DNA of 64,000 bases from Bacteroidetes bacterium RIFCSPLOWO2_12_FULL_35_15 (GCA_001769385.1 MEPB01000037.1:12241-76240); one strand, 5' to 3'. Shown: positions 7,439 through 64,000, counted from the stretch's first letter. Made by a program: numbers and translations. Notes: generated by a model from the sequence alone, not told the origin.

Positions 7439-7728
7439 AGTAACATTAAAAAAGACAGATTAAGAATTTTTTTTAGTCCTGAGAATGAAAATATTAATTC
7501 CATGAGTTTGGTGGTAAATGTTTGTTTTTCAGGTATTATCAGTTATTTATTCTTGCTTTTGATAGCTTGTTAGTATTTTATTCTTCATAACTTTCCCTTA
7601 AATTATTTTGATTTGTAAAAAACAGAATATACATTCGCCACCGTTAAAATATCTAGTTATTTATTTATTAGCAGAATTTAATTTCTAGGTTTTGTAAAAC
7701 AGCAGAATAATAACCTTAAAAAATAAAA

Positions 7729-9825
7729 ATGAAAAAGAAAATACTTTGTTTATTGTTAGGAGTTTCTTTAGTTGGAACTTTGGCAAACGCACAAATCAGA
7801 CGTTGCGGGTCCATGGAAAATCTTGAAAGGTTAAAACTGGAAGATCCTTCTTTGGAAACCCGTATGCGACAAATTGAGAATGCAACACAGGAATTTATCA
7901 ATACTCCTGGGCGTGGCATGAATGCGATCATAAACATCCCGGTAGTGGTTCATGTACTTTATAATACAACATCCCAAAATATTAGTGATGCACAAATTCA
8001 ATCTCAAATTACTGTTTTAAACGAGGATTTCAGAAAATTAAATGCAGATAAAATAAATACTCCTTCTGCTTTTGCAACCACAGCCGCTGATGCTGAAATT
8101 AATTTCTGCCTTGCAGGAAAAGATCCAAACGGTGCTGCCACTACGGGTATTATTAGAAAGTACACTGCCGTAACTTCTTTCAGTGATAATGATGGGGTTA
8201 AATATAATTCCTCAGGAGGGGATAATGCATGGCCCTCAGGAAGTTATCTTAACCTTTGGGTTTGTAATCTGGGAGGCGGTTTACTTGGATATGCCCAGTT
8301 TCCGGGAGGTCCCGTTGCTACTGATGGCGTAGTGATTCTTTATAAGTCATTTGGCAGAGGATATTCAACTGTTGCACCTTATAATAAAGGACGTACTTTA
8401 ACACATGAAGTTGGTCATTGGCTAAACCTGAGACATATCTGGGGAGATGCTTCCTGTGGAAATGATCTTGTAACTGATACACCTACGCAGCAAACGTCCA
8501 ACTATGGCTGTCCTACATATCCACACAGAACCTGCTCAAATACAACCAGTGGAGATGAATTCATGAATTATATGGATTATACTGATGATGGTTGCATGAA
8601 CATGTTTTCTTTGGGACAAAAATCAAGGATGCAAGCATTATTTTCCGGAACCCGGGCAAGTTTACTTTCATCAACTGCTTGTGGCTCACCTGCAACAACA
8701 GCATGTAATGTTCCTGCAAGTTTAAATGCATCTGGTATTACAGCATCTGCCGCAACACTTAGCTGGGGCTCGACAGGCGCAACAAGCTATAATGTTAAAA
8801 TTAAAGCTACCTCAGCAACCACTTGGACAACCGCAACAGCTACCACAAATTCAAAAGGTTTTACGGGTCTTATGGCCTCCACTACTTATGAATTTCAAGT
8901 GCAAAGTGTTTGTTCAGGCAGCACAAGCGCTTATTCAGCTTCTGCAAATTTTACAACCACTTCCGGAACGACTACATCATCCACTTTGCTGGCTATAGGT
9001 AATGGAACCAACGTAATGAAAGCCCCATATGGCACTTATTATATGGATGAGAAAACACAATTTATTGTTACAAAAACAGAATTGTTAGCTGCCGGGTACA
9101 CTTCTGCGAATAGCTATATCAAGGCTCTTGCATTTAATGTTTATAATGCAAGCGGACAGGCAATGTACGGGTTCTCCATAAAAATGCGTCATACTACAGC
9201 AGCTTCTTTTTCATCCACTTCTTATTTAAGCAATACCTCAATGACAACGGTATATGCAGCAACTAAAACAGTAACTACAGGATGGAATACCCATACTTTT
9301 ACAACACCTTTCGCATATAATGGAGTGGATAATTTGTTGATTGAAATATGCTGGGATAATAATTCGTACACCACTGATTCAAAAGTATATTGTTCTACTT
9401 TGTCAACATACAACACCATTATGAAACAACAGGATGTTGCTTCAGGAGGTATATGTGCTGCAACTACGGGGACCCAAACTACTTCAAGACCGAATATCCG
9501 TTTAACAATGGGTTCTTCCACCATAGCAAAACGACTTGAAGCCGAAGAAGAAACAATTGAAACGTTTACGCTTTATCCAAATCCTGCATCATATTCTATC
9601 ACGTTAAAGTATGCAACAGAAGCTGAACATTCTGTTATTTCGGTTTATGTTTATAACATGATGGGAGCATTAATTGATCATATTGAACAAGGCGATTTAG
9701 AAAGCGGGGATCATGAATATACGATGGATCTTTCATCATATTCCAATATGCCTAATGGGATTTATTTACTTACGCTTAATATTAACGGTAAGTTAATGAC
9801 AAAGAGATTTGTTTTAACCCGATAA
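7729..9825 (+). CDS. Secreted zinc metalloprotease, M43 (pappalysin/ulilysin-like), with FN3-like domain and T9SS C-terminal sorting domain
   Basis: Signal peptide. HEVGHWLNLRHIWGD is an HExxHxxxxxH metzincin motif. FN3-like segment (ATLSWGSTGATSYNVKIKA...YEFQVQSV). C-terminus (TLYPNPASYSITLKY...GIYLLTLNINGKLMTKRFVL) is typical of the Por/T9SS CTD. Confidence 0.8.
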   Translation: MKKKILCLLLGVSLVGTLANAQIRRCGSMENLERLKLEDPSLETRMRQIENATQEFINTPGRGMNAIINIPVVVHVLYNTTSQNISDAQIQSQITVLNEDFRKLNADKINTPSAFATTAADAEINFCLAGKDPNGAATTGIIRKYTAVTSFSDNDGVKYNSSGGDNAWPSGSYLNLWVCNLGGGLLGYAQFPGGPVATDGVVILYKSFGRGYSTVAPYNKGRTLTHEVGHWLNLRHIWGDASCGNDLVTDTPTQQTSNYGCPTYPHRTCSNTTSGDEFMNYMDYTDDGCMNMFSLGQKSRMQALFSGTRASLLSSTACGSPATTACNVPASLNASGITASAATLSWGSTGATSYNVKIKATSATTWTTATATTNSKGFTGLMASTTYEFQVQSVCSGSTSAYSASANFTTTSGTTTSSTLLAIGNGTNVMKAPYGTYYMDEKTQFIVTKTELLAAGYTSANSYIKALAFNVYNASGQAMYGFSIKMRHTTAASFSSTSYLSNTSMTTVYAATKTVTTGWNTHTFTTPFAYNGVDNLLIEICWDNNSYTTDSKVYCSTLSTYNTIMKQQDVASGGICAATTGTQTTSRPNIRLTMGSSTIAKRLEAEEETIETFTLYPNPASYSITLKYATEAEHSVISVYVYNMMGALIDHIEQGDLESGDHEYTMDLSSYSNMPNGIYLLTLNINGKLMTKRFVLTR

Positions 9826-53763: not shown

Positions 53764-53851
53764 AGTAGTTAATTAGTTGATTGGGCTAATTTAGGGTTAG
53801 CCTGATTTGACCCAATTGACCCAATTAACCAGTCAACCATTACACAATTAT

Positions 53852-56770
53852 ATGTCAGAAAATACAGTACAACGATTAAGTAAAGTAGCCAAGGAACTCA
53901 ATGTTAGTGTTTCTACAATAACAGAATTTCTTAAAGGTAAAGGACATGTCATAGAAAATAATCCTATGGCAAAAATTTCAGAAGAACTGTATTCAATTCT
54001 TTCAAAAGAATATCAATCAGAAAAGGCGGCTAAGGAAGAAGCGAAACAAGTAACATCCAGCTCTCGCGCAAAAAAAGAAAGTATAACCCTGGACGAAGAA
54101 GCAAAAGTTTCTAATGTTAAAAAAGTTGAAGAGGAAGAAGATATAATAATTAAAAACGTGCAGAATATTCCTCCTCCGGAAAAAATAAAGGAGAAGCCTG
54201 TAGAAATTGTTTCTAAAAAAACTGAGCCGGAGGAAGAAAAAGAAGTTATTAAATCGGATGTTAAGTTTACGGTAGTTTCTAAAATTGATCTGGATGCTCT
54301 GAACACAAAAACTAAACCGGCCAAAAAAACGAAATTAACAAAGGAAGAAGAGAAAGCTGCAAAAGAAGAAGAGAAAAAAGCTAAAGCTAAACCAACAAAA
54401 GGAAAAGCAAAAGCAAAAAAAGAAGATGAGGTTGTAGAAGAACAAAAAGAAGTTCAAGAAATTAAAGCACCTGTTGTTGAAGCTGAAGTAATTCCTGAAA
54501 TAAAATCAAGCGATCTTCCTCAAGAAGATTTTCTTGCAACAAAAGTTGAAAAATTAGAAGGACCCAAAATTATGGGTAAAATAGATTTACCTGTAAAAGA
54601 AGAACGAAAAAAACCGGTTGCTTCATCAACCCCGGCAACCCCGGCAAACGATAACAAGAAAAAACGTAAACGCATTAAAAAGAGTTATGGCGGTGCTACG
54701 CTTGGCGATACCTGGAATGCAAATAAAAAACCTGGAACACCTGGTGCCACGGGAACAACAGGTGGTACCGGAACCCCTGTAAATAATGCTCCAAGAAAAC
54801 AATATCCGAATAACACCTTTACACCACAAACACCAAGAGGTAAATATGTTAAACCGGGAAAAGTAGTATTAACTCCTGAAGAAATTCAGGCACAAATAAA
54901 AGAAACGCTTGCTCGTTTAAGCGGAGCAGGAAAATCCAAAGCTTCCAAACACCGTAAATCTAAACGGGATATGGTGAGTGAACGTATTCAGGAAGCTGCA
55001 GATCAGCAAGAGGCAGAGAAAAAAGTAATTAAGGTTACTGAATTTGTTTCTGCAAATCAATTAGCGCAGATGATGGATATTTCGGTAAACGAAATCATTT
55101 CCACATGTATGAGTTTAGGAATGTTTGTTTCCATTAATCAACGTTTAGATGCCGAAACAATAGCTATTGTGGCTGAAGAGTTTGGATACTCGCTGGAGTT
55201 CGTCAGTGTTGAAGTGCAAGAGGCAATAAAAGAAGAAGAAGATACAGAAGATCAATTATTATCCCGTTCACCAATTGTAACAGTAATGGGTCACGTTGAC
55301 CATGGTAAAACATCCTTATTGGATTATATCCGTAAGGCGAATGTTATTGCGGGTGAAGCAGGTGGTATCACACAACATATTGGTGCATATAACGTAAAAT
55401 TAGAAAACGAAAAAACAATTACATTCCTTGATACACCGGGTCACGAAGCCTTTACTGCGATGCGTGCCCGTGGTGCCCAGGTAACTGATATTGCAATTAT
55501 TGTTGTAGCAGCCGATGATAGTGTAATGCCTCAAACCATTGAAGCGATAAATCATGCGCAGGCTGCAGGTGTTCCAATTGTTATTGCAATTAATAAAATT
55601 GACAAACCCGGAGCTAATCCTGATAAGATTCGCGAAGCATTATCGCAATTAAATATTTTGGTGGAAGAATGGGGAGGAAAGGTTCAGTGTCAGGAAATTT
55701 CTGCGAAAAAAGGAAGTAACATTGAAACATTGCTTGAAAAAGTGTTGTTGGAAGCAGAGATGCTTAATTTGAAAGCGAATCCGAATAAAAATGCAACAGG
55801 AACGGTTATTGAATCGGAGCTGGATAAAGGCCGGGGATATGTTAGTACCATACTTGTTGAAGCAGGCACATTGAAAGTTGGAGATATTGTATTAGCAGGT
55901 TGTTTCAGCGGTAAAGTAAAAGCACTGCATAATGAACGCGGACAAGTTGTAAAAGAAGCAGGACCAGCAATGCCGGTAATATTACTGGGTTTGAGTGGTG
56001 CGCCTCAAGCGGGTGATAAATTTCATGTAATGTCAGATGAACGTGAAGCTCGTGAAATTGCTGCGAAACGTTTGCAATTACAACGTGAACAAGGTATCAG
56101 AACAAATAAGCATATTACATTAGATGAAATTGGAAGACGATTAGCGATTGGTGATTTTAAAGAATTGAATGTAATTGTAAAAGGTGACGTGGATGGTTCT
56201 GTGGAAGCATTAGCAGATTCATTGCAAAAACTATCGACTGAAAAAATTCAGATAAAAATTATTCATAAATCTGTTGGTGCCATCAGTGAATCGGATGTAT
56301 TATTAGCTTCGGCATCCAATGCTATCGTTGTTGGTTTCCAGGTTCGCCCTTCAGCAGGTGCCCGTAAAATAGCGGAAACAGAACAAATTGATATTCGTTT
56401 ATATTCTATTATTTATGATGCGATCAATGAAATAAAAGCGGCAATGGAGGGAATGTTAGCCCCTGAATTTGAAGAAAAAATTGTTTGCAACATTGAGATT
56501 CGTGAAGTATTTAATATTACCAGAGTCGGTACAATTGCAGGATGTTTTGTGTTAGACGGAAAAGTGACCCGTAATACCAAAGTACGTGTGATAAGTGATG
56601 GTATTGTTGTTCATACCGGTGAGCTGGGTTCTTTAAAACGTTTTAAAGATGATGTGAAAGAAGTAAACAAAGGTTTTGAATGTGGATTGAACATCAAAAA
56701 TTTCAACGGTATCAAAGTTGGTGATATTATTGAAGGATATGAATTAGTGGAAGTAAAAGCGAAATTATAA
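53852..56770 (+). CDS. infB: Translation initiation factor IF-2
   Basis: Low-complexity K/E-rich N-terminal region, G-domain ([24 protein letters not shown]). Start likely at the internal Met MSENTVQRL, not the ORF-track start at 53807. Confidence 0.9.
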
Positions 56771-56845
56771 TATTCTCTTTTTTAATGAAAGGCTCTGCAG
56801 TATTGCTTTAACTACACAAGTCTAAGGTGGGAGGAAAAAAATGAG

Positions 56846-56876
56846 AAAGGACGCTAGTTTTAGCGTCCTTTTTGTT
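56846..56876. terminator. Rho-independent terminator shared by infB (+) and the convergent minus-strand operon
   Basis: ggacgcta-gttt-tagcgtcc with aaa upstream and tttttg downstream. Confidence 0.7.
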
Positions 56877-56894: not shown

Positions 56895-57641
56895 TTACGA
56901 TCTAAGCCAAGTAAATACCATTTTTAAGTAGCTATTTAAGTAATCATCCAAGTTCTGTGATTTCAAGCCAAAATCAGCTAGCTTTCTGTAAGGACTGCCT
57001 GGGGAAGGAGTCGCAAAGCATTCTATTGAACCGCCATTACTACATTCAATAACCCTCAAAAAAGGTTTTTTTACTAAATCGGGATTGCCATTTATACTTT
57101 GAAGCAATGTGTTTTGAAGTTCAAATGATTTGCTTTCATTCATACTTAATGTTGGATGCTTATTAAAAAAGGCACTATTTAGAAACATTTCATTCATTAC
57201 ACCCTTAGAAGAACACAATATTTTAATCGTTTGTCCCTTTTGGGGGTATTTAAAAAAAAGATGATTGTATGTCCTTTCCGTTAAATGTTTGTCTAAAGCA
57301 GATTTATCCTTCCTGTTGCAGCTGAATATCATATCAGTAATACCAATTGAATTTTTTTCAAGGCTATTTTTTATTGAAGCGACATTTTCAAGAAAGATTT
57401 CTGAGTCGAAAAATGTTTGATACCAATACCAAAACCTATTATTTGAACTTCCATAATAGAATTGGATGTCGCCATTTTTGACTCTTTCAATGGTCTTAAG
57501 CGCATTTAATTTCCCATCATTAGAAAAGGTCAATGACCACGTAGGAAAGCTACCTAGAATTATTTTTGAATGGTTTAAGGTAGGACTATCGAAATCTATT
57601 CTCGGATGAAATTCCCGTAAATTATTTGAAGTATTTTTCAT
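56895..57641 (-). CDS. Hypothetical protein, last gene of the operon; weak resemblance to UDG-superfamily motifs
   Basis: Overlaps the upstream gene by 20 nt. N-terminal ILGSFPTWS resembles UDG motif A (GxxPG-type). C-terminal FATPSPGSPYRKL resembles motif B (HPSPLS / NPSGLS). Not confirmed. Confidence 0.5.
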   Translation of the reverse strand: MKNTSNNLREFHPRIDFDSPTLNHSKIILGSFPTWSLTFSNDGKLNALKTIERVKNGDIQFYYGSSNNRFWYWYQTFFDSEIFLENVASIKNSLEKNSIGITDMIFSCNRKDKSALDKHLTERTYNHLFFKYPQKGQTIKILCSSKGVMNEMFLNSAFFNKHPTLSMNESKSFELQNTLLQSINGNPDLVKKPFLRVIECSNGGSIECFATPSPGSPYRKLADFGLKSQNLDDYLNSYLKMVFTWLRS

Positions 57642-59400
57642 ACAGATCTTCTCCCATTTTTCTGTAGTGACTGGACTTATATCCTTTGAAAGGGAAATTG
57701 CTTACATCGGCAAATTTACTCTTATATAACTCAATGTCTCCATGTTTTTTATTTTCGATCAGAATCCTTAAGCAATTAATAACACCGTTGATAGTAGTGA
57801 CACTCAGAATAGTATTTCCAGCAACTCTATTCACTTTCCAATTTTCATTGTCAATATTGGCTTTCAAACCGATAAAAATGTTTCGAATTTGCTCGACACA
57901 AAAAGCTCGATATTCATCAAGAAGTTTATAGTCATCCTTCTTTTTTTTCAAGTCCTCCTTATTCTTTTTTACCCAAAAACTGAATAAGCTATCTACACCT
58001 TCAAATTTCACTAGTGGTTTTAGGCCAAAGCTTATTATAGTGGTGGTTTTCAATTTAGATTTTTCAAACCAATATTCTTCAAATAGACCACCTAATGGAC
58101 CGGACTCGTTCAATTTGCTAATTATATATTTTGAAATTGATGCCGTTGAAAACGGATTCATCATAAACTCAATTTCATACTTTAATTGTGGAGAAGCCCC
58201 AGACTGATTAGAGTTAATTTCCAAAAATAATTTAGCTTCAAATTTTATCCTTTTTTCTTCAGGTTCGTCTTTGGGATAAAGGATACCTGTAATCAATAAA
58301 TTCTGAATTCCCCTCAAGCCTGCAATAGATTTTTCATAAACATCATCTCCTTCATGATATGAATATGTCCTATGCTGGCCATCAATAATTCCTATAATAT
58401 TCGCTTTACTTGATATTTTAATGGTGGCTGGCTGTACCCTTGTAATACCTGGATTTGTGAAATTTCCTTTATTGTCTATTGACAATTCGCTACCTCCTTC
58501 ATCTAATATTCTAATCTCATTAATTGGTAAAGTTGTTATAATATTATTGATGAATACACGTTTTTCATCGTGCAAATATTTGCGCATACTTTTTATTTTT
58601 TGGGCAACAAACATCCGCTGATAAAATCCAATGTTATCCTTATTTCTCCAACCATCCCTTCTCAAGACGTAGGCTCGTTTAATTAAAGATTCAGCATCAA
58701 TATAAAATGAAACAATCTTATAGCCCTCTTTGAAAGAACTATGTTCTTCAGGCAATATATGCCCAGAGAATTCATCTACAGTACTCTTTGACGCTTGTTT
58801 TATATTGTCACCGATCTTCGAAAAGTCAATTCCAAGAAAATCAAAAAACTCATGTTTTGTGGACTTCTTTATGATTTTGGCGATGCTCACAAAATACTTT
58901 ACAACAGGGTAATCAAAATAATGAATGTTTGTTACCAAAACCTTATGTTCATTAACTACCTTGCGTTTTGAAGCATACAGAATTCGAATTTGCAATTGAT
59001 TTGCAGTGTATTTATTGCTGGTAACGCTTTCAAAGACTTGTTTTAAGGACTTAAACTTGTCCTCAGTCAAAAGGAATTTGAAAAAATTAGCGGGATTTAA
59101 ATTTATTTTATCGTAAATAATTTTCTTTTCCTTCAAATGGATTCCTGGATCACCAATGGTGTATTCAGTAAGTACAAAGATATTTTCATAATAGAAGATG
59201 TCATCGATTTCTGACTCACGGCTGTCATAAGTAAAATGTTTGCCATCAATCCCTGGGACTCTTGAAAATCCGATATTCGTCATCAAGGTTCTTATCTCTC
59301 TGGCTTGTTGATCTTGTTCTCTTTTTTGTTCCTTTTCTTGATCACTGAGTTTTTTCTTCCCCTTCTTTTTACCTTTCGCTTTTGTTTTTTTTGTTTTCAT
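57622..59400 (-). CDS. DGQHR-motif protein (DndB-like, ParB/Srx-fold superfamily) with Lys-rich N-terminal tail
   Basis: Contains ANIIGIIDGQHRTYSYHEG, the diagnostic DGQHR motif of the DndB family. N-terminus MKTKKTKAKGKKKGKKK. 592 aa. Confidence 0.7.
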   Translation of the reverse strand: MKTKKTKAKGKKKGKKKLSDQEKEQKREQDQQAREIRTLMTNIGFSRVPGIDGKHFTYDSRESEIDDIFYYENIFVLTEYTIGDPGIHLKEKKIIYDKINLNPANFFKFLLTEDKFKSLKQVFESVTSNKYTANQLQIRILYASKRKVVNEHKVLVTNIHYFDYPVVKYFVSIAKIIKKSTKHEFFDFLGIDFSKIGDNIKQASKSTVDEFSGHILPEEHSSFKEGYKIVSFYIDAESLIKRAYVLRRDGWRNKDNIGFYQRMFVAQKIKSMRKYLHDEKRVFINNIITTLPINEIRILDEGGSELSIDNKGNFTNPGITRVQPATIKISSKANIIGIIDGQHRTYSYHEGDDVYEKSIAGLRGIQNLLITGILYPKDEPEEKRIKFEAKLFLEINSNQSGASPQLKYEIEFMMNPFSTASISKYIISKLNESGPLGGLFEEYWFEKSKLKTTTIISFGLKPLVKFEGVDSLFSFWVKKNKEDLKKKKDDYKLLDEYRAFCVEQIRNIFIGLKANIDNENWKVNRVAGNTILSVTTINGVINCLRILIENKKHGDIELYKSKFADVSNFPFKGYKSSHYRKMGEDLYEKYFK

Positions 59401-59415
59401 CGAGAAAGAAAAATT

Positions 59416-60318
59416 TTATGGTTTTGCCTTATTTATATCAGTAATTGTACTCATTGCACTAACTACATCCTTGGCATAGATAATGTTTTCTTGTCCAGCC
59501 TTGCCTTCATAAGTAAAATTAAACAAGAGAGAAATAATTCGTTTCCTTCCTCCTACAGACAATTTCTCATCTCCGTAGACGTAGAACTCATGTTTGTTCA
59601 GAGTATAAAGGTTTTGAGAGGCCTTTTTTATTACAACCTTAGTAACACCTATAATAGACTTTTGCTCATATTTAAGCTTGTCAATAGTTCCAACACTTGC
59701 TTCAAATGAAGCTTTAAATTTAAGCGCAGCTGGATCATTCAAATTGCCTTCAATAACATCGTGTAATAGGGTTTTATATTCATTTAAATCTTCACCTTCT
59801 GCAACTGGCCAAGTGAGAAATAATGAAAAATTTCTGCTATATTTTTTTTGAAACTCAAAAACAGATTTGATTGTGGCATCGAAAGGATACTTTACACTGG
59901 CTTGCATTCTCCCATCAAAATCCAAATTTACTACATCGACAGGAAAGGTTTTATTTTTTCCACTAATTATGAAACTATAATTGGCTGCAATGTATGGGAT
60001 GAAGTCCGCTTCCACTTTGGCTTCGATGAGTTTTTCACTTAACTTTCTTTGAATTTTTGGATCTTTTTCGAAACATCTCACATTTCCTTTGATAATTCTA
60101 AAATTAGGGGTTCCATCAACGGATTTTGATTCTGCTTCTTCCCAATCAATCAGGCCTTCATCTTTGAACAGATGCAAATCTTGCATTGCCTCCGCTGGAA
60201 ATGTTAAAATACTGAAGTCACGTTCCTGGTCACCGAATATTTCTTTGGCGAAGGCAACCCACTTTTTTCTAATAAAGTCTTTTGGGCTGGAGTTATGTTT
60301 ATAGACGGCTTTAGGCAT
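59416..60318 (-). CDS. Hypothetical protein (300 aa) in the operon
   Basis: Tightly spaced between the GHKL ATPase and DGQHR genes. VDVVNLDFDG is faintly Rossmann/MTase-motif-I-like but unconvincing. Confidence 0.5.
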   Translation of the reverse strand: MPKAVYKHNSSPKDFIRKKWVAFAKEIFGDQERDFSILTFPAEAMQDLHLFKDEGLIDWEEAESKSVDGTPNFRIIKGNVRCFEKDPKIQRKLSEKLIEAKVEADFIPYIAANYSFIISGKNKTFPVDVVNLDFDGRMQASVKYPFDATIKSVFEFQKKYSRNFSLFLTWPVAEGEDLNEYKTLLHDVIEGNLNDPAALKFKASFEASVGTIDKLKYEQKSIIGVTKVVIKKASQNLYTLNKHEFYVYGDEKLSVGGRKRIISLLFNFTYEGKAGQENIIYAKDVVSAMSTITDINKAKP

Positions 60319-60324
60319 ACAGTA

Positions 60325-61974
60325 TTACTTGGCTTTCCATTCATCTATTTTTTTATAAAATAGCTCCTTTAGTTTTTTTGCATCACCTCGACTTTCATTG
60401 AAAGAATTTTCGAATATGATAAAAATGGTTTGCAAATATTCCCAATCACTTTTTTTAAACTTATTTTTAGCAACAGAATCAATCTCAATTACAGTCCCTT
60501 TATTTTTTGTCGTAACAATTTTAACAGGAGAAACTTCTTCTTCCTCCTTCTTTTTTTTACTTCCTTTTTGGGGAGTTGCAGGTTTAGGCTTTGATGAATA
60601 CGTAACCTTCTTAGCTTTTAAAATTCGCTTTGTGGCATCCTTCTTAACCTTATCCTTTTTGGCATCTCTAACATTTTTCCCGTCATCATATAATTTAAAA
60701 GCAATCTTAAAGATGTCCTCCTTCAAATATTCATGTAAAAAGTTCTGTAAAGCAATATAATCTGGGTGGGTTACCCTGAACGATTTTCGATCAATATTCA
60801 TTGCATCCTCAAGACCCTGTTCGATATATAATTCTCCTGAGATCCAGTTCCTAAATATCTGTTCCATATAAACAGGATATCTTAAAAAAGTGCCGTCAAA
60901 CCCAAATCGCTCTGCAATAGGAATGTTTTTTATTCTAATAGCTACACCATTTAGTTCACGAGGAATTAACAAACTGTTTTGTATGTAAAAATATCCCTTG
61001 AGAGCAATGAAATTATCACTATCGCCAATTCTGATTTTCTTTTTAAATGATGTATGCTCTGCTCTCTTATTTTTATCCTTGGGAAAGTAAATTGGCTTTT
61101 TAAGATACATGCCATCAAAATCCACCTTGAAGTTGAATTTTTTATGAAGAGAAACAATTTCATCAATTGTTTTATCCTTAACTCCTTCAATCGGCCCACC
61201 ATCAATATATTCAACGGGAATGTAAGATGCTAAATCAATAATGAACTGCATATACTCACTATCGTTTTCCCAAGAGTAGACGCTTTTGCTAGCGTGATGT
61301 GCAAGCAGATCTTTCATAGTTTTAAATGAAAGCTTAGCAAAGCCCTTGTTTTTTTCTTTTACCGCTTGAGCTTTATATGTCTCATCATTAAATATCTTTA
61401 AAACAGGCTCTTTTAATCCTACCAGCCTGATTGCTGTAAAGTGTTCGTTCTTATCTTCTTTTTCATTTACTAGGGTAAACTTCCCTTTCAAATAAGTATC
61501 TTCATCATCGCTTTTAGATGGCTTACTATCAAGAATTTCTTTGAAATCAATCCTTGCAGTAAACTTTATCGCTTCACCTTTCTTTGAAGATACAACTTCT
61601 AATACATCACATATCTCATTTACTGCAATAAAACCGATACCTATTTTTCCAATCAATGGTCTGCCAGCTGCAGAAAATTCACCTCTGTTTCGTTTGTTAG
61701 ATTTACTAATCCATGCAAAATTGTTATCAAAATCCTCTGCATTCATTCCATTTCCATCATCTAAGATCGTTATGCTATCTTCGATAGGTTTCATTCTAAT
61801 AATCACATTTTGCGCATCAGCATCAAATGAATTATTTACTAATTCTTTGATACAACTTGCAGGAGAGCTGTAAATACCAGAGCTCAGATCATTTATAATC
61901 TGAGAATGTACTTTAATCTCTCCAACTTGTTCGATGTCCAGAGCAAGAGTTATGTCATTATTTTTATCGGTCAT
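60325..61974 (-). CDS. GHKL-superfamily ATPase (MORC/MutL-like Bergerat fold) with Lys-rich C-terminal tail
   Basis: N-box IKELVNNSFDADAQNV, G1 ILDDGNGMN, G2 GKIGIGFIAV within the first 120 aa. C-terminal KKDKVKKDATKRILKAKK...KGSKKKKEEEE. Confidence 0.7.
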   Translation of the reverse strand: MTDKNNDITLALDIEQVGEIKVHSQIINDLSSGIYSSPASCIKELVNNSFDADAQNVIIRMKPIEDSITILDDGNGMNAEDFDNNFAWISKSNKRNRGEFSAAGRPLIGKIGIGFIAVNEICDVLEVVSSKKGEAIKFTARIDFKEILDSKPSKSDDEDTYLKGKFTLVNEKEDKNEHFTAIRLVGLKEPVLKIFNDETYKAQAVKEKNKGFAKLSFKTMKDLLAHHASKSVYSWENDSEYMQFIIDLASYIPVEYIDGGPIEGVKDKTIDEIVSLHKKFNFKVDFDGMYLKKPIYFPKDKNKRAEHTSFKKKIRIGDSDNFIALKGYFYIQNSLLIPRELNGVAIRIKNIPIAERFGFDGTFLRYPVYMEQIFRNWISGELYIEQGLEDAMNIDRKSFRVTHPDYIALQNFLHEYLKEDIFKIAFKLYDDGKNVRDAKKDKVKKDATKRILKAKKVTYSSKPKPATPQKGSKKKKEEEEVSPVKIVTTKNKGTVIEIDSVAKNKFKKSDWEYLQTIFIIFENSFNESRGDAKKLKELFYKKIDEWKAK

Positions 61975-61976
61975 TC

Positions 61977-62927
61977 TTAATATAAAAAGTGTTCTGGTTT
62001 TCTGGCAACAGCCATGTTAGCGGTAGGCACAAACACAGGTTTTCCCATTTCACGAATTTTTAAATTTCCTATTTTGTACTGACTCATTCTTTCTTCGCCA
62101 ACTCGAATGAATTTTATATACTTTTCTATTCCTAATGAATTTCTTTTGTTCTTGAGAGCCGCGATCATTGTTGACCCAACTCCCGCAAATGGATCCAAAA
62201 TCCAATCATTTTCTTTTGTTAAAGCAAGAACACACCTTTCTACAAGTTCTATTGGGTACTGGCAAGGATGAATTGTTTTTTCTTTATGATTAGCCTTAAC
62301 GTTAGGGATTTCCCAAATGTCCTTCTCCCATTCACTTCGTACAATTTTCCAAACATCAGAAGGATTCTTTCCTTTAGGATTACCCGAAATCTGCCCTTTC
62401 TTTTCACCTTTGTAATATGTTTTTCCAGGATACTTTGCTGGCACTCTAACATCATCAAGATTAAATGTATATTTATCCGATTTCGAATACCACATTATAG
62501 TTTCATATCGCCCAGAAAATCTTTGCGAAGCATGAAGTCCATGCTCAAAATGCCAAATAATTCGATTGCGAAGAATCAGTTTTTCTTTAGCGAAAATATC
62601 GTGATAAAAAATATCCAAAGGCACAACCTCTTTTGTTTTCGGATTTATATAATTACCAACCTGCCAGCAGATGCTGCCTTTTTTATCAAGTAGAGTAACT
62701 AATTTTTTAATAATTGATTCAATTTCCAGTTTATAATTTTCTAAGGAATTAGACTTTTCATATTCCTTATCCATATTATAAGGCGGGGAAGTCATAATAA
62801 GTTTAAACTTCTTTTTCTGCGCAATCAATTTATCCAAATTTTTATCCGCTACTCCATGAATATAATCTGCAGCAACAACCCTGACCCTTCTTTTAGCCTT
62901 TGCTTGTTTTTTTACTGCCTTCGCCAT
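61977..62927 (-). CDS. Beta-class amino DNA methyltransferase (N4-cytosine or N6-adenine)
   Basis: Motif IV IMTSPPYN precedes motif I ILDPFAGVGST (beta-class order), plus HPCQYP motif. Lys/Arg-rich N-terminus MAKAVKKQAKAKRR. Confidence 0.8.
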   Translation of the reverse strand: MAKAVKKQAKAKRRVRVVAADYIHGVADKNLDKLIAQKKKFKLIMTSPPYNMDKEYEKSNSLENYKLEIESIIKKLVTLLDKKGSICWQVGNYINPKTKEVVPLDIFYHDIFAKEKLILRNRIIWHFEHGLHASQRFSGRYETIMWYSKSDKYTFNLDDVRVPAKYPGKTYYKGEKKGQISGNPKGKNPSDVWKIVRSEWEKDIWEIPNVKANHKEKTIHPCQYPIELVERCVLALTKENDWILDPFAGVGSTMIAALKNKRNSLGIEKYIKFIRVGEERMSQYKIGNLKIREMGKPVFVPTANMAVARKPEHFLY

Positions 62928-62949
62928 AATTTTAATTTTATATCCTTTT

Positions 62950-62966
62950 TTTGCAGTTTTACTGCA
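62950..62966. promoter_or_regulatory. 17-bp palindrome immediately upstream of the methyltransferase start (candidate operator)
   Basis: ttgcag-tttta-ctgcaa, 23 nt upstream of the ATG at 62927 on the transcribed strand. Confidence 0.35.
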
Positions 62967-63064
62967 AGAGCAAATATAAGTTAAAAAGAGCGAATGGAGT
63001 AGGTAAAAATTTCAATCATCTTCCACTACAGCTATCGGTGGTAAAAGAATGCCATAAGCCATAT

Positions 63065-63325
63065 CTAGTTCACGTGTAAGGTATCTAGGAAACTCCCTTT
63101 TAACTTTAACCCGAATTCCTTTATGAGATCACCCAAGTTCATTTCAAATTCTTCAGCCAGTTTATAACACCAAAACAATGTTGGACTAATCTCCCCACGC
63201 TCAAGACGAGATATGTTTTGGTAATTATTCCCGACTTTAGAAGCCAGATGTGCCTGTGGCCAATCCTTTTCAAGTCTCTTTTTTGCACAGTTAAGGCAGG
63301 AAAGGAATGCAAGGCCTTTTTGTTT
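63065..63325 (-). CDS. XRE-family HTH reading frame (controller-like), with no in-frame ATG/GTG/TTG start; possibly frameshifted or degraded
   Basis: Minus-strand frame reads CAKKRLEKDWPQAHLASKVGNNYQNISRLERGEISPTLFWCYKLAEEFEMNLGDLIKEFG, a textbook XRE helix-turn-helix layout. The ORF-track ATG at 63369 is in a different frame. Confidence 0.4.
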   Translation of the reverse strand, partial: KQKGLAFLSCLNCAKKRLEKDWPQAHLASKVGNNYQNISRLERGEISPTLFWCYKLAEEFEMNLGDLIKEFGLKLKGSFLDTLHVN

Positions 63326-63405
63326 TTACATATATTTAAACAAATGATTAAATATATTGTTTTAATCAAAATATAAATTTAATTTTGTTATGCTATTTTG
63401 TAATC

Positions 63406-64000
63406 ATGAAAGTTAAAAAAGAAATAATAGATCCTTCAACGGAAGAAAAGATTAAGAATGCTGCCCGGAAAGTATTTACTCAAAAAGGCTATGCCGGTAC
63501 CAAAACAAGAGATATAGCGGAGGAGGCTGGAATTAATCTGGCATTGCTCAATTATTATTTCAGAAGCAAGGAAAAACTTTTTGACATTATCATGTTGGAG
63601 AGTTTTCAGGAATTTATGCGATCAATGATCTCTGTTTTCAATGACGAAAAAACTTCGCTAGAGAAAAAAATTGAATCGATGGTGAGTAACTACATTGATT
63701 TATTAATAAAACAACCCGATATTCCGCTTTTTATTCTTAGCGAATTGAGAAATAATCCGAATGAAATAGTTAAAAAAATGAGTTTAGATAATAACCTGAT
63801 GAAATCATTTTTTATGAAGCAAATTCAACAAGCAATTAAAGAGGAGAAAATTTCAGACATAAGTCCGGTACATTTTTTTATGAATATGATGAGTTTGACC
63901 GTTTTTCCATTTGTCGCAAGTCCGATGCTTAAAAATTTAGGAGATCTACAGCAAAAAGATTTTGACAAATTAATGCAAGAACGTAAAAAATTAATTCCCA
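63406..64000 (+). CDS. TetR/AcrR family transcriptional regulator (3' end beyond window)
   Basis: ATG at 63406. N-terminal HTH KIKNAARKVFTQKGYAGTKTRDIAEEAGINLALLNYYFRSKEKLF is a canonical TetR signature. No stop before the window end. Confidence 0.75.
   Translation, partial: MKVKKEIIDPSTEEKIKNAARKVFTQKGYAGTKTRDIAEEAGINLALLNYYFRSKEKLFDIIMLESFQEFMRSMISVFNDEKTSLEKKIESMVSNYIDLLIKQPDIPLFILSELRNNPNEIVKKMSLDNNLMKSFFMKQIQQAIKEEKISDISPVHFFMNMMSLTVFPFVASPMLKNLGDLQQKDFDKLMQERKKLIP

Follow-up and report, generated by a model that had tools for sequence, protein, structure and literature searches.

Domains of the COG1479/DGQHR type are known as fusions to PD-(D/E)xK nucleases with ties to restriction-modification (R-M) (PMC3632139), and the R-M association of nucleases fused to ParB domains of the DGQHR/DUF262 type is known in general terms (PMC3632139, PMC4619093). 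In the DUF262-nuclease Type IV enzymes GmrSD, SspE, BrxU and GrwAB the nuclease is under the control of the NTPase domain (PMC4619093, PMC12137116), DUF262 NTPases gating the nucleases of the GmrSD family (PMC12137116). GHKL ATPases have already been described in R-M operons (PMC2292703), and a GHKL domain gates the nuclease of VcSduA (PMC12137116). Single-gene antiphage glycosylases of UDG fold also exist (PMC11078745; bioRxiv 10.1101/2025.10.29.685425). The locus described here, at 56895-63325 of the window (the whole stretch of 64,000 nucleotides analysed, from Bacteroidetes bacterium RIFCSPLOWO2_12_FULL_35_15, GCA_001769385.1 MEPB01000037.1:12241-76240), has likenesses to all of these around one DNA methyltransferase (MTase). 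Its features are:

53807-56770, plus strand, infB, flanking the operon beyond p5
56844-56873, both strands, bidirectional hairpin terminator common to infB and the operon (11-13 pairs, then T runs)
56895-57641, minus strand, p5 gene (putative UDG-like protein), 248 aa
57622-59400, minus strand, DGQHR protein gene, 592 aa
58081-58728, minus strand, ParB/Srx-like DGQHR domain of the DGQHR protein (about residues 225-440)
58756-59343, minus strand, N-terminal restriction-endonuclease-fold (PD-(D/E)xK-like) domain of the DGQHR protein (about residues 20-215)
59416-60318, minus strand, p3 gene, 300 aa
60325-61974, minus strand, GHKL ATPase gene, 549 aa
61977-62927, minus strand, MTase gene (beta-class amino-DNA methyltransferase), 316 aa
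62951-62967, minus strand, 7-bp palindrome TTGCAGTaaaACTGCAA, after the TAnnTTTG element and 24 nt 5' of the MTase ATG
62971-62978, minus strand, promoter-like TAnnTTTG element TATATTTG, read directly from the sequence
63065-63331, minus strand, XRE/HTH_3 pseudogene (HTH_3 frame, E = 4.4e-7, stop at codon 2)
from 63409, divergent to the operon, TetR gene (TetR_N, E = 1.4e-15)

An earlier note on this DNA had described five packed minus-strand genes between the infB terminator and a divergent TetR gene, and had proposed them as a defence system of novel composition. Packing and borders are as it described, with gaps of 2, 6 and 15 nt in the order MTase, GHKL, p3, DGQHR, and a 20-nt overlap between the DGQHR and p5 genes; the defence or R-M-like nature of the locus is likewise upheld. 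The partners of the Dnd system are absent as claimed, none of the five ORFs matching the DndACDE, SspABCD or DpdA/C families. The novelty of the combination stands in part: PADLOC-DB v2.0 has no model for p3, the p3 superfamily, p5 or the entire operon, and gave for the non-MTase genes only generic REase_II (at the GHKL N-terminus) and weak DpdB matches, but the R-M ties of nuclease-ParB and GHKL proteins had been described before.

The MTase is the shared hub modification gene of the locus. Its assignment as a beta-class amino MTase is confirmed by the matches to PF01555 (N6_N4_Mtase, E = 7e-51) and PADLOC MTase_II (1e-63), and by the motif order, SPPY (residues 47-50, motif IV) lying ahead of DPFAGVGS (FxGxG). 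The SPPY motif, found in 89 of the 91 MTases adjoining DGQHR genes, suggests N4-cytosine (m4C) specificity. The window MTase shares 78% identity with that of a locus with only the GHKL and p3 genes besides, 77% with that of a locus with only the DGQHR gene, and 57% with that of locus L092, whose partner is a BglII-family endonuclease. The same MTase clade serves DGQHR genes alone in L008 and L011, the GHKL and p3 pair alone, and a BglII-like/SNF2/NOV_C module in L092, L047 and L057.

The DGQHR protein carries the motifs QR (261-262), DGQHR (340-344) and FxxxN (392-396) on a ParB/Srx fold, as the earlier note had proposed. That note had also seen no restriction endonuclease in the operon, which is not confirmed: a restriction-endonuclease fold sits within the N-terminus of this same protein. 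The acidic and Lys residues of this domain are invariant, with a candidate active site formed by E64, D66, E79-x-T81, H88 and K92, and the C-terminal region is all-helical. No match was found to the restriction endonuclease sequence families searched, nor to DUF1524 or GmrSD_C. The protein is predicted to be an NTP-regulated restriction endonuclease with a putative nuclease activity. It resembles GmrSD, SspE, BrxU and GrwAB in joining a ParB/Srx-like domain (QR, DGQ(Q/H)R, FxxxN) and a nuclease in one polypeptide, but its nuclease is an N-terminal domain of PD-(D/E)xK type, theirs a C-terminal one of His-Me (DUF1524) type. The DGQHR domain weakly matches DndB, DpdB and TIGR04172 (19-27 bits, far under the family cutoffs of 29-450); among named DGQHR families these two, DndB and DpdB, come closest, and the protein differs from them by its extra N-terminal nuclease-fold domain and its operon by having no DndA/C/D/E, DpdA or Ssp partners.

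Co-occurrence was counted over 80 species-level DGQHR loci. By inspection, about 75 of these have an SPPY-type beta-class MTase gene adjoining the DGQHR gene (70 by strict criteria), typically 5' of it in the same orientation and touching or overlapping it, and in about 90% of the loci the two genes stand without GHKL, p3 or p5. The pair is spread over Bacteroidota, Proteobacteria, Firmicutes, Fusobacteria, an archaeon and a CPR bacterium, and occurs on plasmids and in a temperate Akkermansia phage, within its lysogeny module. This arrangement recalls Type II R-M of the BglII/BamHI type, in which an SPPY beta-class MTase also lies directly 5' of a PD-(D/E)xK-fold gene; here, however, the putative endonuclease joins nuclease and ParB domains in 590 aa, has NTPase-type motifs and is far more conserved than usual Type II endonucleases. 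Identity exceeds 50% across phyla, and the protein partners two MTase families, short and long, of low mutual similarity; the two features together are atypical for sequence-specific Type II enzymes.

The same features raise the possibility, which we regard as doubtful, that the DGQHR protein is an analogue of Type III Res without specificity of its own, the Mod-like MTase (PF01555) recognising the site; the ParB-like NTP switch would then stand in for the helicase-type ATP switch by which long-range DNA communication is licensed ahead of cleavage. ParB proteins are NTP-gated DNA clamps, the genes overlap in a Mod-then-Res-like order, the DGQHR protein is highly conserved across phyla while its MTase partner may be of the short or the long family, and the MTase shows weak matches to PADLOC MTase_III. 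Against this, the MTases nearest to the short one also partner a classical BglII-like Type II endonuclease, so the MTase can act independently, and the MTase and DGQHR genes are not co-directional in L059 or in the Akkermansia phage.

The GHKL protein is a Bergerat-fold ATPase of the MORC/paraMORC-like R-M type. It matches HATPase_c_3 above cutoff (E = 5.5e-19), bearing out the earlier assignment, and the N-domains of Hsp90 and MutL in PDB; its motifs ExxxN, DxGxG and GxxGxG are invariant in nine homologs, in whose alignment no nuclease motif was recognised. The N-terminal 170 aa are homologous to the named endonuclease family BbrUII/HgiDII (NF050001, 1e-25), but the match is N-terminal only (residues 20-191 on positions 3-171 of 659; 90.4 bits against a cutoff of 550). 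The p3 gene follows the GHKL gene in every GHKL locus seen, the p3-centred contexts being a small sample of three, and p3 is read as the obligate partner of the ATPase. The p3 protein matches NF047698 (PP_RS20740; E = 4e-7), which its distant relatives also reach, and it is a distant member of this uncharacterised superfamily. Its family is small (1.84 billion proteins yielded only 103 representative clusters); no match was found in Pfam, PDB, PADLOC or PHROG, and no nuclease was recognised in it. An intact-motif GHKL ATPase in an MTase operon is shared with the MORC/paraMORC R-M systems (Iyer et al. 2008; PMC2292703); unlike those and the GHKL-Shedu protein VcSduA, the ATPase has here neither an SF2 helicase nor a fused nuclease, its partner being p3.

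Alternatively, the DGQHR protein, GHKL with p3, or both might regulate or load the MTase rather than act as restriction effectors, the locus being mainly an epigenetic modification module, by analogy with DndB (a repressor), DpdB (an ATPase cofactor) and MtsA/MtsB of MANTIS (MTase-loading ATPases). The kinship of the DGQHR domain to DndB and DpdB, the lack of a recognisable nuclease in GHKL and p3, and the precedent of MANTIS, in which methylation needs an ATPase (bioRxiv 10.64898/2026.09.23.753747), are consistent with this. We nevertheless consider it improbable: acidic and Lys residues are invariant in the restriction-endonuclease fold of the DGQHR protein, each short MTase is a full Type II-like enzyme, and the loci lie in defence-island, integrative-element or prophage surroundings (GmrSD, AbiE, Type I R-M and toxin-antitoxin neighbours).

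The suggestion that p5 is UDG-like is partly borne out. It matches TIGR04274 (family-6 hypoxanthine-DNA glycosylase) at E = 1e-5 with 25.7 bits against an 80-bit cutoff, its profile reaches 2l3f in PDB at E = 0.05, and the two best Foldseek matches of its AF2 model (pLDDT 93.8) are 2l3f (putative UDG, probability 0.91) and 2c2p (MUG, 0.89); these UDG-superfamily matches are weak (E about 0.02, TM 0.35-0.52) and no Pfam UDG match was found. Its invariant motifs GSFP.W (30-35) and PSPGSP.R (212-219) may, by eye, correspond to UDG motifs A (G-x-x-P) and B (PS...). These concordant signals weakly suggest a divergent UDG-superfamily (MUG or family-6-like) protein. The family comprises 88 homologs, confined to Bacteroidota, and every p5 context seen, three of them unbiased p5-centred ones, adjoins an N6_N4-MTase operon, with three MTase subfamilies and four kinds of partner genes; p5 is an accessory gene of such operons. 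Brig1 and Brig2 are likewise small UDG-superfamily proteins beside methylation-based defence genes, such glycosylases often adjoining BREX or R-M loci; p5 differs in its restriction to Bacteroidota and its constant N6_N4-MTase neighbours, the likeness being one of fold and context rather than of compared sequences.

By analogy with Vsr-Dcm, or with ALKB2 and C5-MTases, p5 could be a repair companion of the amino-MTase and no defence effector, clearing a deamination or mis-alkylation product of N4-cytosine methylation; we hold this as a tentative second choice, nearly as likely as antiphage base excision. The nearest folds of p5 are repair glycosylases, its association with N6_N4-MTase operons spans subfamilies and partners, and linkage of Vsr to MORC/MTase operons was reported (PMC2292703). 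The analogy with Vsr-Dcm goes as far as a repair-type enzyme genetically tied to a cytosine MTase, since the folds (UDG against Vsr endonuclease) and the chemistry (N4 against C5) differ. Moreover, 74 of the 80 MTase-DGQHR loci have no p5, the family is small and limited to one phylum, and the unbiased p5-centred contexts number only three. Deamination of m4C yields uracil, which is already handled by the general UNG.

The five genes might act together as one obligate, integrated defence system, as the earlier note had it; for example, the glycosylase or the ATPase complex would make or sense lesions at unmethylated sites, which the DGQHR nuclease would then cut. We regard this as unlikely. 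The full set of five genes is seen in at least three orders: that of the window, also in L094; that of Mucilaginibacter (L009/L012); and that of a Flavobacteriaceae MAG (L051). Winogradskyella (L093) has a variant with a shorter DndB. All three of the 80 loci with GHKL and p3 also have p5, itself present in only six (C(6,3)/C(80,3) = 2.4e-4, two of the three being congeneric), which hints at cooperation over independence, and the window genes are tightly packed or overlapping. The expected co-conservation of all five genes nevertheless largely fails: the MTase-DGQHR pair mostly stands alone, the MTase-GHKL-p3 set occurs with neither DGQHR nor p5 in L096 and L097 (whose contigs stop 1-2 kb downstream of p3), and p5 adjoins unrelated MTase operons in L091 and L092 and often lies on the opposite strand (L013, L049, L051, L056, L091, L093).

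The XRE-like HTH remnant noticed upstream is real, its frame opening with an ATG (63331-63329) directly followed by TAA. The idea of C-protein control derived from it is not sustained, given this stop and the lack of any homolog upstream of the MTase in 97 loci; the pseudogene is no conserved part of the system. A TATTTG-like element, resembling the TAnnTTTG element that we take to be promoter-like from the Bacteroidota -7 consensus, is seen again 5' of related MTases. The palindrome TTGCAGTaaaACTGCAA does not recur in the upstream regions of related MTases, and comparison of the upstream regions of related loci showed no conservation, hence no conserved operator.

From the genes present, their assigned domains and folds, and the patterns of co-occurrence established here, the five genes are best read as separable restriction-type modules around one MTase rather than as a single five-part machine: with modest confidence, we consider the locus a mosaic methylation-based R-M island in which a hub MTase is shared by two restriction modules and joined by an accessory glycosylase. 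The MTase would mark host DNA, probably with N4-methylcytosine. In the first module, the DGQHR protein (nuclease, ParB/Srx-like NTP-binding switch and helical C-terminal domain) should cleave DNA without the methyl mark, and by analogy with GmrSD, SspE and BrxU its nuclease would be gated by the ParB-like domain as this binds or hydrolyses NTP; unlike those enzymes the DGQHR protein is strictly MTase-paired, and therefore cutting blocked by modification, not dependent on it, is expected. The second module, GHKL with p3, would be a paraMORC-like ATP-driven clamp with its partner, the role of p3 being conjectural, and p5, also conjecturally, would most likely add a base-excision layer against phage DNA with modified pyrimidines, as in Brig1/Brig2. 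With the five-gene set recurring in shuffled order in a few Bacteroidota, these modules may cooperate. The commonest of them, the MTase with its nuclease-ParB protein, is apparently uncharacterised and widespread.

The five genes proposed in the earlier note as a tightly packed block were confirmed as open reading frames spanning 56895-62927 on the minus strand, separated in operon order by 2, 6 and 15 nt and then overlapping by 20 nt. As described there, infB flanks the block at one end, with a bidirectional hairpin terminator at 56844-56873; at the other end is a TetR gene (TetR_N, 1.4e-15) that runs divergently from position 63409.

Genes of the operon, in operon order.
61977-62927, minus strand, DNA methyltransferase (MTase), 316 aa
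60325-61974, minus strand, GHKL ATPase, 549 aa
59416-60318, minus strand, p3, partner protein of the GHKL ATPase, 300 aa
57622-59400, minus strand, DGQHR protein, 592 aa
56895-57641, minus strand, p5, UDG-like protein, 248 aa

Base composition gave no sign of foreign origin (GC is even across the operon, 0.32-0.35, compared with 0.33-0.40 in nearby DNA), and a sigma-70 promoter scan, with fewer matches than in shuffled sequence, was uninformative. The XRE-like HTH remnant and the palindrome noted upstream are both present. The XRE-like frame (63065-63331, minus strand) encodes a nearly complete HTH_3 domain (E=4.4e-7) that is otherwise intact but has a TAA stop codon directly after its ATG (63331-63329), so the gene is either a recent pseudogene or a sequencing or assembly error of the MAG. 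Positions 62951-62978 hold TATATTTG (TAnnTTTG-like), then the 7-bp palindrome TTGCAGTaaaACTGCAA (62951-62967), 24 nt upstream of the MTase start. Upstream regions of related MTases have in common only the Bacteroidota-type TAnnTTTG-like element: the palindrome is absent from them, the AT-rich inverted repeats near 63330-63357 are not conserved, and none of the related loci has an HTH homolog upstream of the MTase. With an interrupted HTH gene and no conservation of these elements, the C-protein-style control suggested from them is unsupported.

The MTase belongs to the beta class and matches PF01555 (E=7e-51); its motif IV, SPPY (residues 47-50), is N-terminal to DPFAGVGS. SPPY is a hallmark of N4-cytosine MTases, not of N6-adenine ones, and from this motif the window enzyme is probably m4C-specific. 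The MTases partnering DGQHR proteins fall into two families, short (about 300-320 aa, the window's type) and long (about 420-430 aa), and 89 of 91 carry SPPY. The window MTase is 78% identical to the MTase of a locus containing only MTase, GHKL and p3, 77% identical to that of a locus containing only MTase and DGQHR, and 57% identical to a BglII-associated MTase.

The DGQHR protein, currently annotated only as "DGQHR domain-containing protein", scores 58.1 bits against TIGR03187 (cutoff 58.85) and weakly against the DndB and DpdB models. The domain is defined by three motifs, the QR pair, DGQHR and FxxxN (PMC4619093); all three are invariant across 77 species-level homologs, which upholds the original assignment. 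An AlphaFold2 model built from a 34-sequence alignment (pLDDT 82.5, pTM 0.78) gave no significant Foldseek match in the PDB; the top matches were nearly all PD-(D/E)xK nucleases, together with a ParB-N domain. A sequence-level PDB search with the DGQHR profile found no match.

Structure comparison of the DGQHR model (value for each match).
AF1548, 8.0
N.BspD6I, 7.6
NucS, 7.5
XisH-like, 7.1
Upx restriction endonuclease, 7.0
FokI, 6.8
HamA, 6.7
SduA, 6.7
NgoMIV, 6.7
BstEII, 6.7
ParB-N (5k5d), 6.0
PadC, 5.1

Apart from the ParB-like segment, residues ~20-215 form the sole alpha/beta region of the model and the C-terminus is all-helical, placing the predicted nuclease fold at the N-terminus. Six residues, E64 (E or D), D66, E79, T81, H88 and K92, are conserved in 77/77 homologs (37-75% identity) and would fit a variant E-D-ExK site with the lysine supplied by the following helix. 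Given this modelled PD-(D/E)xK-like fold and its conserved candidate site, the claim that the operon lacks a restriction endonuclease appears unsupported. Fusions of COG1479/DUF262/DGQHR ParB-like domains to HNH, PD-(D/E)xK or HEPN nucleases are common, and these domains are linked to restriction-modification (R-M; PMC3632139); a DUF262 NTPase domain gates the nuclease in GmrSD, BrxU, SspE and GrwAB (PMC12137116). The window protein is unusual in its domain order (nuclease first), in its nuclease type and in its strict pairing with an MTase; this pairing implies an enzyme blocked by modification, not one that depends on it.

Homologs of the DGQHR protein with more than 50% identity number in the hundreds and extend across phyla, and scanning a single genome for each species turned up a relative in 285 species. 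For the best 80 loci, open reading frames were called and searched with the five window proteins. A PF01555 MTase lies directly upstream on the same strand in 70/80 by strict criteria, and in about 75/80 after inspection of five borderline cases; three more have an MTase that is divergent or lies no more than 6 kb away, one locus runs into a contig end and one lacks an MTase. GHKL+p3 occur in three of the 80 and p5 in six. The MTase-DGQHR pair alone was seen in look-ups from Pseudomonas, Bacteroides xylanisolvens, a deltaproteobacterium, Dyadobacter and a metagenome, where it mostly lies in an integrative element or a defence island alongside genes for AbiE, Type I R-M, GmrSD or toxins; it also occurs on rhizobial plasmids, annotated as "site-specific DNA-methyltransferase" plus "DGQHR domain-containing protein". 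The literature searched contains no description of the pairing, and defence-finding tools probably score the partner MTase as an orphan methylase. Conservation of the DGQHR protein is high even though the family of its partner MTase changes, an awkward pattern for a Type II enzyme with sequence specificity; the DGQHR protein may depend on the MTase in a Type III-like manner.

Pairs with 39-52% identity were also found in a Thermoplasmatota archaeon, a Parcubacteria (CPR) MAG, Fusobacterium and a Bacilli MAG (L044, L078, L036 and L032, respectively), indicating wide horizontal spread. In the temperate Akkermansia phage Chantilly (L099, ON453895.1 32270-35376), genes for a DGQHR homolog (33.5% identity, 94% coverage) and a site-specific MTase converge in the interval from integrase to repressor, where a prophage-borne defence cassette would be expected. 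A plasmid-borne DGQHR gene (L098, NZ_CP017943.1 308941-310767) is labelled "lmrP MFS antibiotic efflux pump" by PLSDB/RGI, evidently a false-positive resistance prediction.

The GHKL assignment proved solid: the ATPase matches HATPase_c_3 above the cutoff (5.5e-19), it matches the Hsp90 and MutL N-domains in the PDB, and its ATP-binding motifs are invariant. Its N-terminal 170 residues also match a BbrUII/HgiDII restriction-enzyme model at 90 bits against a 550-bit cutoff, reflecting ATPase-domain homology only. Its partner p3 has no match in Pfam, PADLOC or PHROG and weakly matches NCBIfam NF047698 ("PP_RS20740 family"). Fold searches with PDB profiles (20 and 64 sequences), with Pfam on all members, and by hhalign versus the alignments of the MTase and the DGQHR protein yielded nothing; on reading the sequence, LT(F/L)P..D, CE and DV(V/I)NLDF.G give an impression of class-I methyltransferase motifs. 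The protein is rare: it has 22 close homologs, and a set of 1.84 billion proteins yields 103 representative clusters, of which the distant ones fall in the PP_RS20740 family. Viral contigs and plasmids gave no matches.

GHKL and p3 are always adjacent. Two of three p3-centred look-ups (L096, L097) contain short MTase-GHKL-p3 with housekeeping genes on both sides, DGQHR and p5 being absent within the available flanks, and a metagenome scan returned a single locus (L094) with MTase-GHKL-p3 in the window's order up to the contig end. The third look-up (L095) combines a divergent long MTase with GHKL-p3, p3 being truncated by an IS element; there (L095:10001-11875) the p3 homolog is broken by a rve-family transposase insertion and two GmrSD_N genes follow. 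A recurrent accessory protein of ~430 aa beside GHKL was considered and rejected, the L009 and L093 proteins being unrelated. The GHKL+p3 module contains no recognisable nuclease, and p3 could be a nuclease, a specificity/reader subunit or one component of a device that loads the MTase, as in MANTIS.

The possible UDG fold of p5 was accepted as a divergent superfamily fold, since three weak lines of evidence agree: a match to the model for family-6 hypoxanthine-DNA glycosylases (1e-5; 25.7 bits, cutoff 80); a structure model (pLDDT 93.8) whose two best Foldseek matches, both with probability ~0.9 and E ~0.02, are 2l3f (a putative Methanosarcina UDG) and 2c2p (Deinococcus MUG), the lower ones being unrelated Rossmann-type enzymes of low probability; and a 45-homolog profile that finds 2l3f in the PDB at E=0.05. 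GSFP.W and PSPGSP.R, both invariant in p5, are similar to motifs A and B of UDGs. No assignment to a defined UDG family was accepted. Every taxon-assigned member among its 88 homologs is from Bacteroidota, with no matches in viral contigs, plasmids or phages. Brig1 and Brig2 are UDG-fold single-gene antiphage glycosylases found beside methylation-based systems (PMC11078745; bioRxiv 10.1101/2025.10.29.685425), and candidate roles for p5 are Brig-like defence, MTase-companion repair or restriction by base excision. In three p5-centred look-ups, p5 always adjoins an N6_N4 MTase operon, of three kinds.

Operons beside p5.
L091, 10918-15933 (minus strand) and 7989-9611 (plus strand), MTase and proteins of 346, 233 and 660 aa
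L092, MTase, BglII-like, 417-aa protein, SNF2, NOV_C
L093, MTase, DndB (343 aa), 430-aa protein, GHKL, p3; p5 divergent

The L091 operon is headed by an HTH_3 gene, its MTase is a divergent N6_N4 enzyme (432 aa, 19% identical to the long type), and its 660-aa protein weakly matches AAA_23. In L093 a short DndB-like protein (7503-8534, minus strand, 343 aa, PF14072 5.9e-14), without the N-terminal nuclease domain, replaces the long DGQHR protein.

A further operon recurs on the short SPPY MTase clade: MTase, BglII-like endonuclease (~150 aa), a protein of ~380-426 aa, SNF2 helicase and NOV_C protein.

Occurrences of the BglII-like/SNF2/NOV_C operon.
L092:4499-10032
L057:11781-17056, minus strand
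L047:4596-9860

In L057 and L047 this module, with its short MTase, adjoins a DGQHR gene; split SNF2 and NOV_C genes in L047 suggest decay there.

The simplest account of these loci is a hub MTase, probably m4C-specific, surrounded by separable effector modules. The modules would be the nuclease-ParB DGQHR protein (by far the commonest), GHKL+p3, the BglII-like/SNF2/NOV_C set and the UDG-like p5, with the window holding all but the BglII-like set. This account agrees with published comparative work (PMC2292703, PMC3632139), in which MORC/paraMORC GHKL ATPases are parts of R-M operons (PMC2292703); a GHKL domain gates the PD-(D/E)xK nuclease of VcSduA (PMC12137116). The proposal of a new defence system is partly supported: the window locus is best read as an R-M-type mosaic and not as a categorically new five-component system, given that the modules also occur separately. 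That the five genes form one integrated system is decidedly unlikely; all three GHKL+p3 loci among the 80 also have p5, and the five-gene set is seen in at least three gene orders, so the modules may cooperate functionally.

A speculative extension of the hub-and-module account, which we consider rather unlikely, is that MTase plus DGQHR constitutes a widespread unrecognised R-M class (at least 285 species-level genomes), in which the Type I/III helicase motor would be replaced by an NTP-gated switch of ParB/Srx type, joined to a PD-(D/E)xK nuclease in one protein, the same m4C methylase licensing interchangeable effectors that include GHKL+p3 and a UDG-fold glycosylase dependent on cytosine N4-methylation state. 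The widespread, uncharacterised pair of MTase and nuclease-ParB protein and the orphan families p3 and p5 merit follow-up: p3 (PP_RS20740 superfamily) and the Bacteroidota UDG-like p5 are two uncharacterised families and tractable targets, and a cultured strain, Mucilaginibacter frigoritolerans ATCC BAA-1854, has all five genes. The locus illustrates how several effector modules may share one methylase as their hub. The DGQHR family reaches across many phyla, with members on plasmids and in a prophage; were the DGQHR protein a methylation-sensitive nuclease, it would define an architecture for restriction enzymes that combines a nuclease with a ParB-like NTPase.
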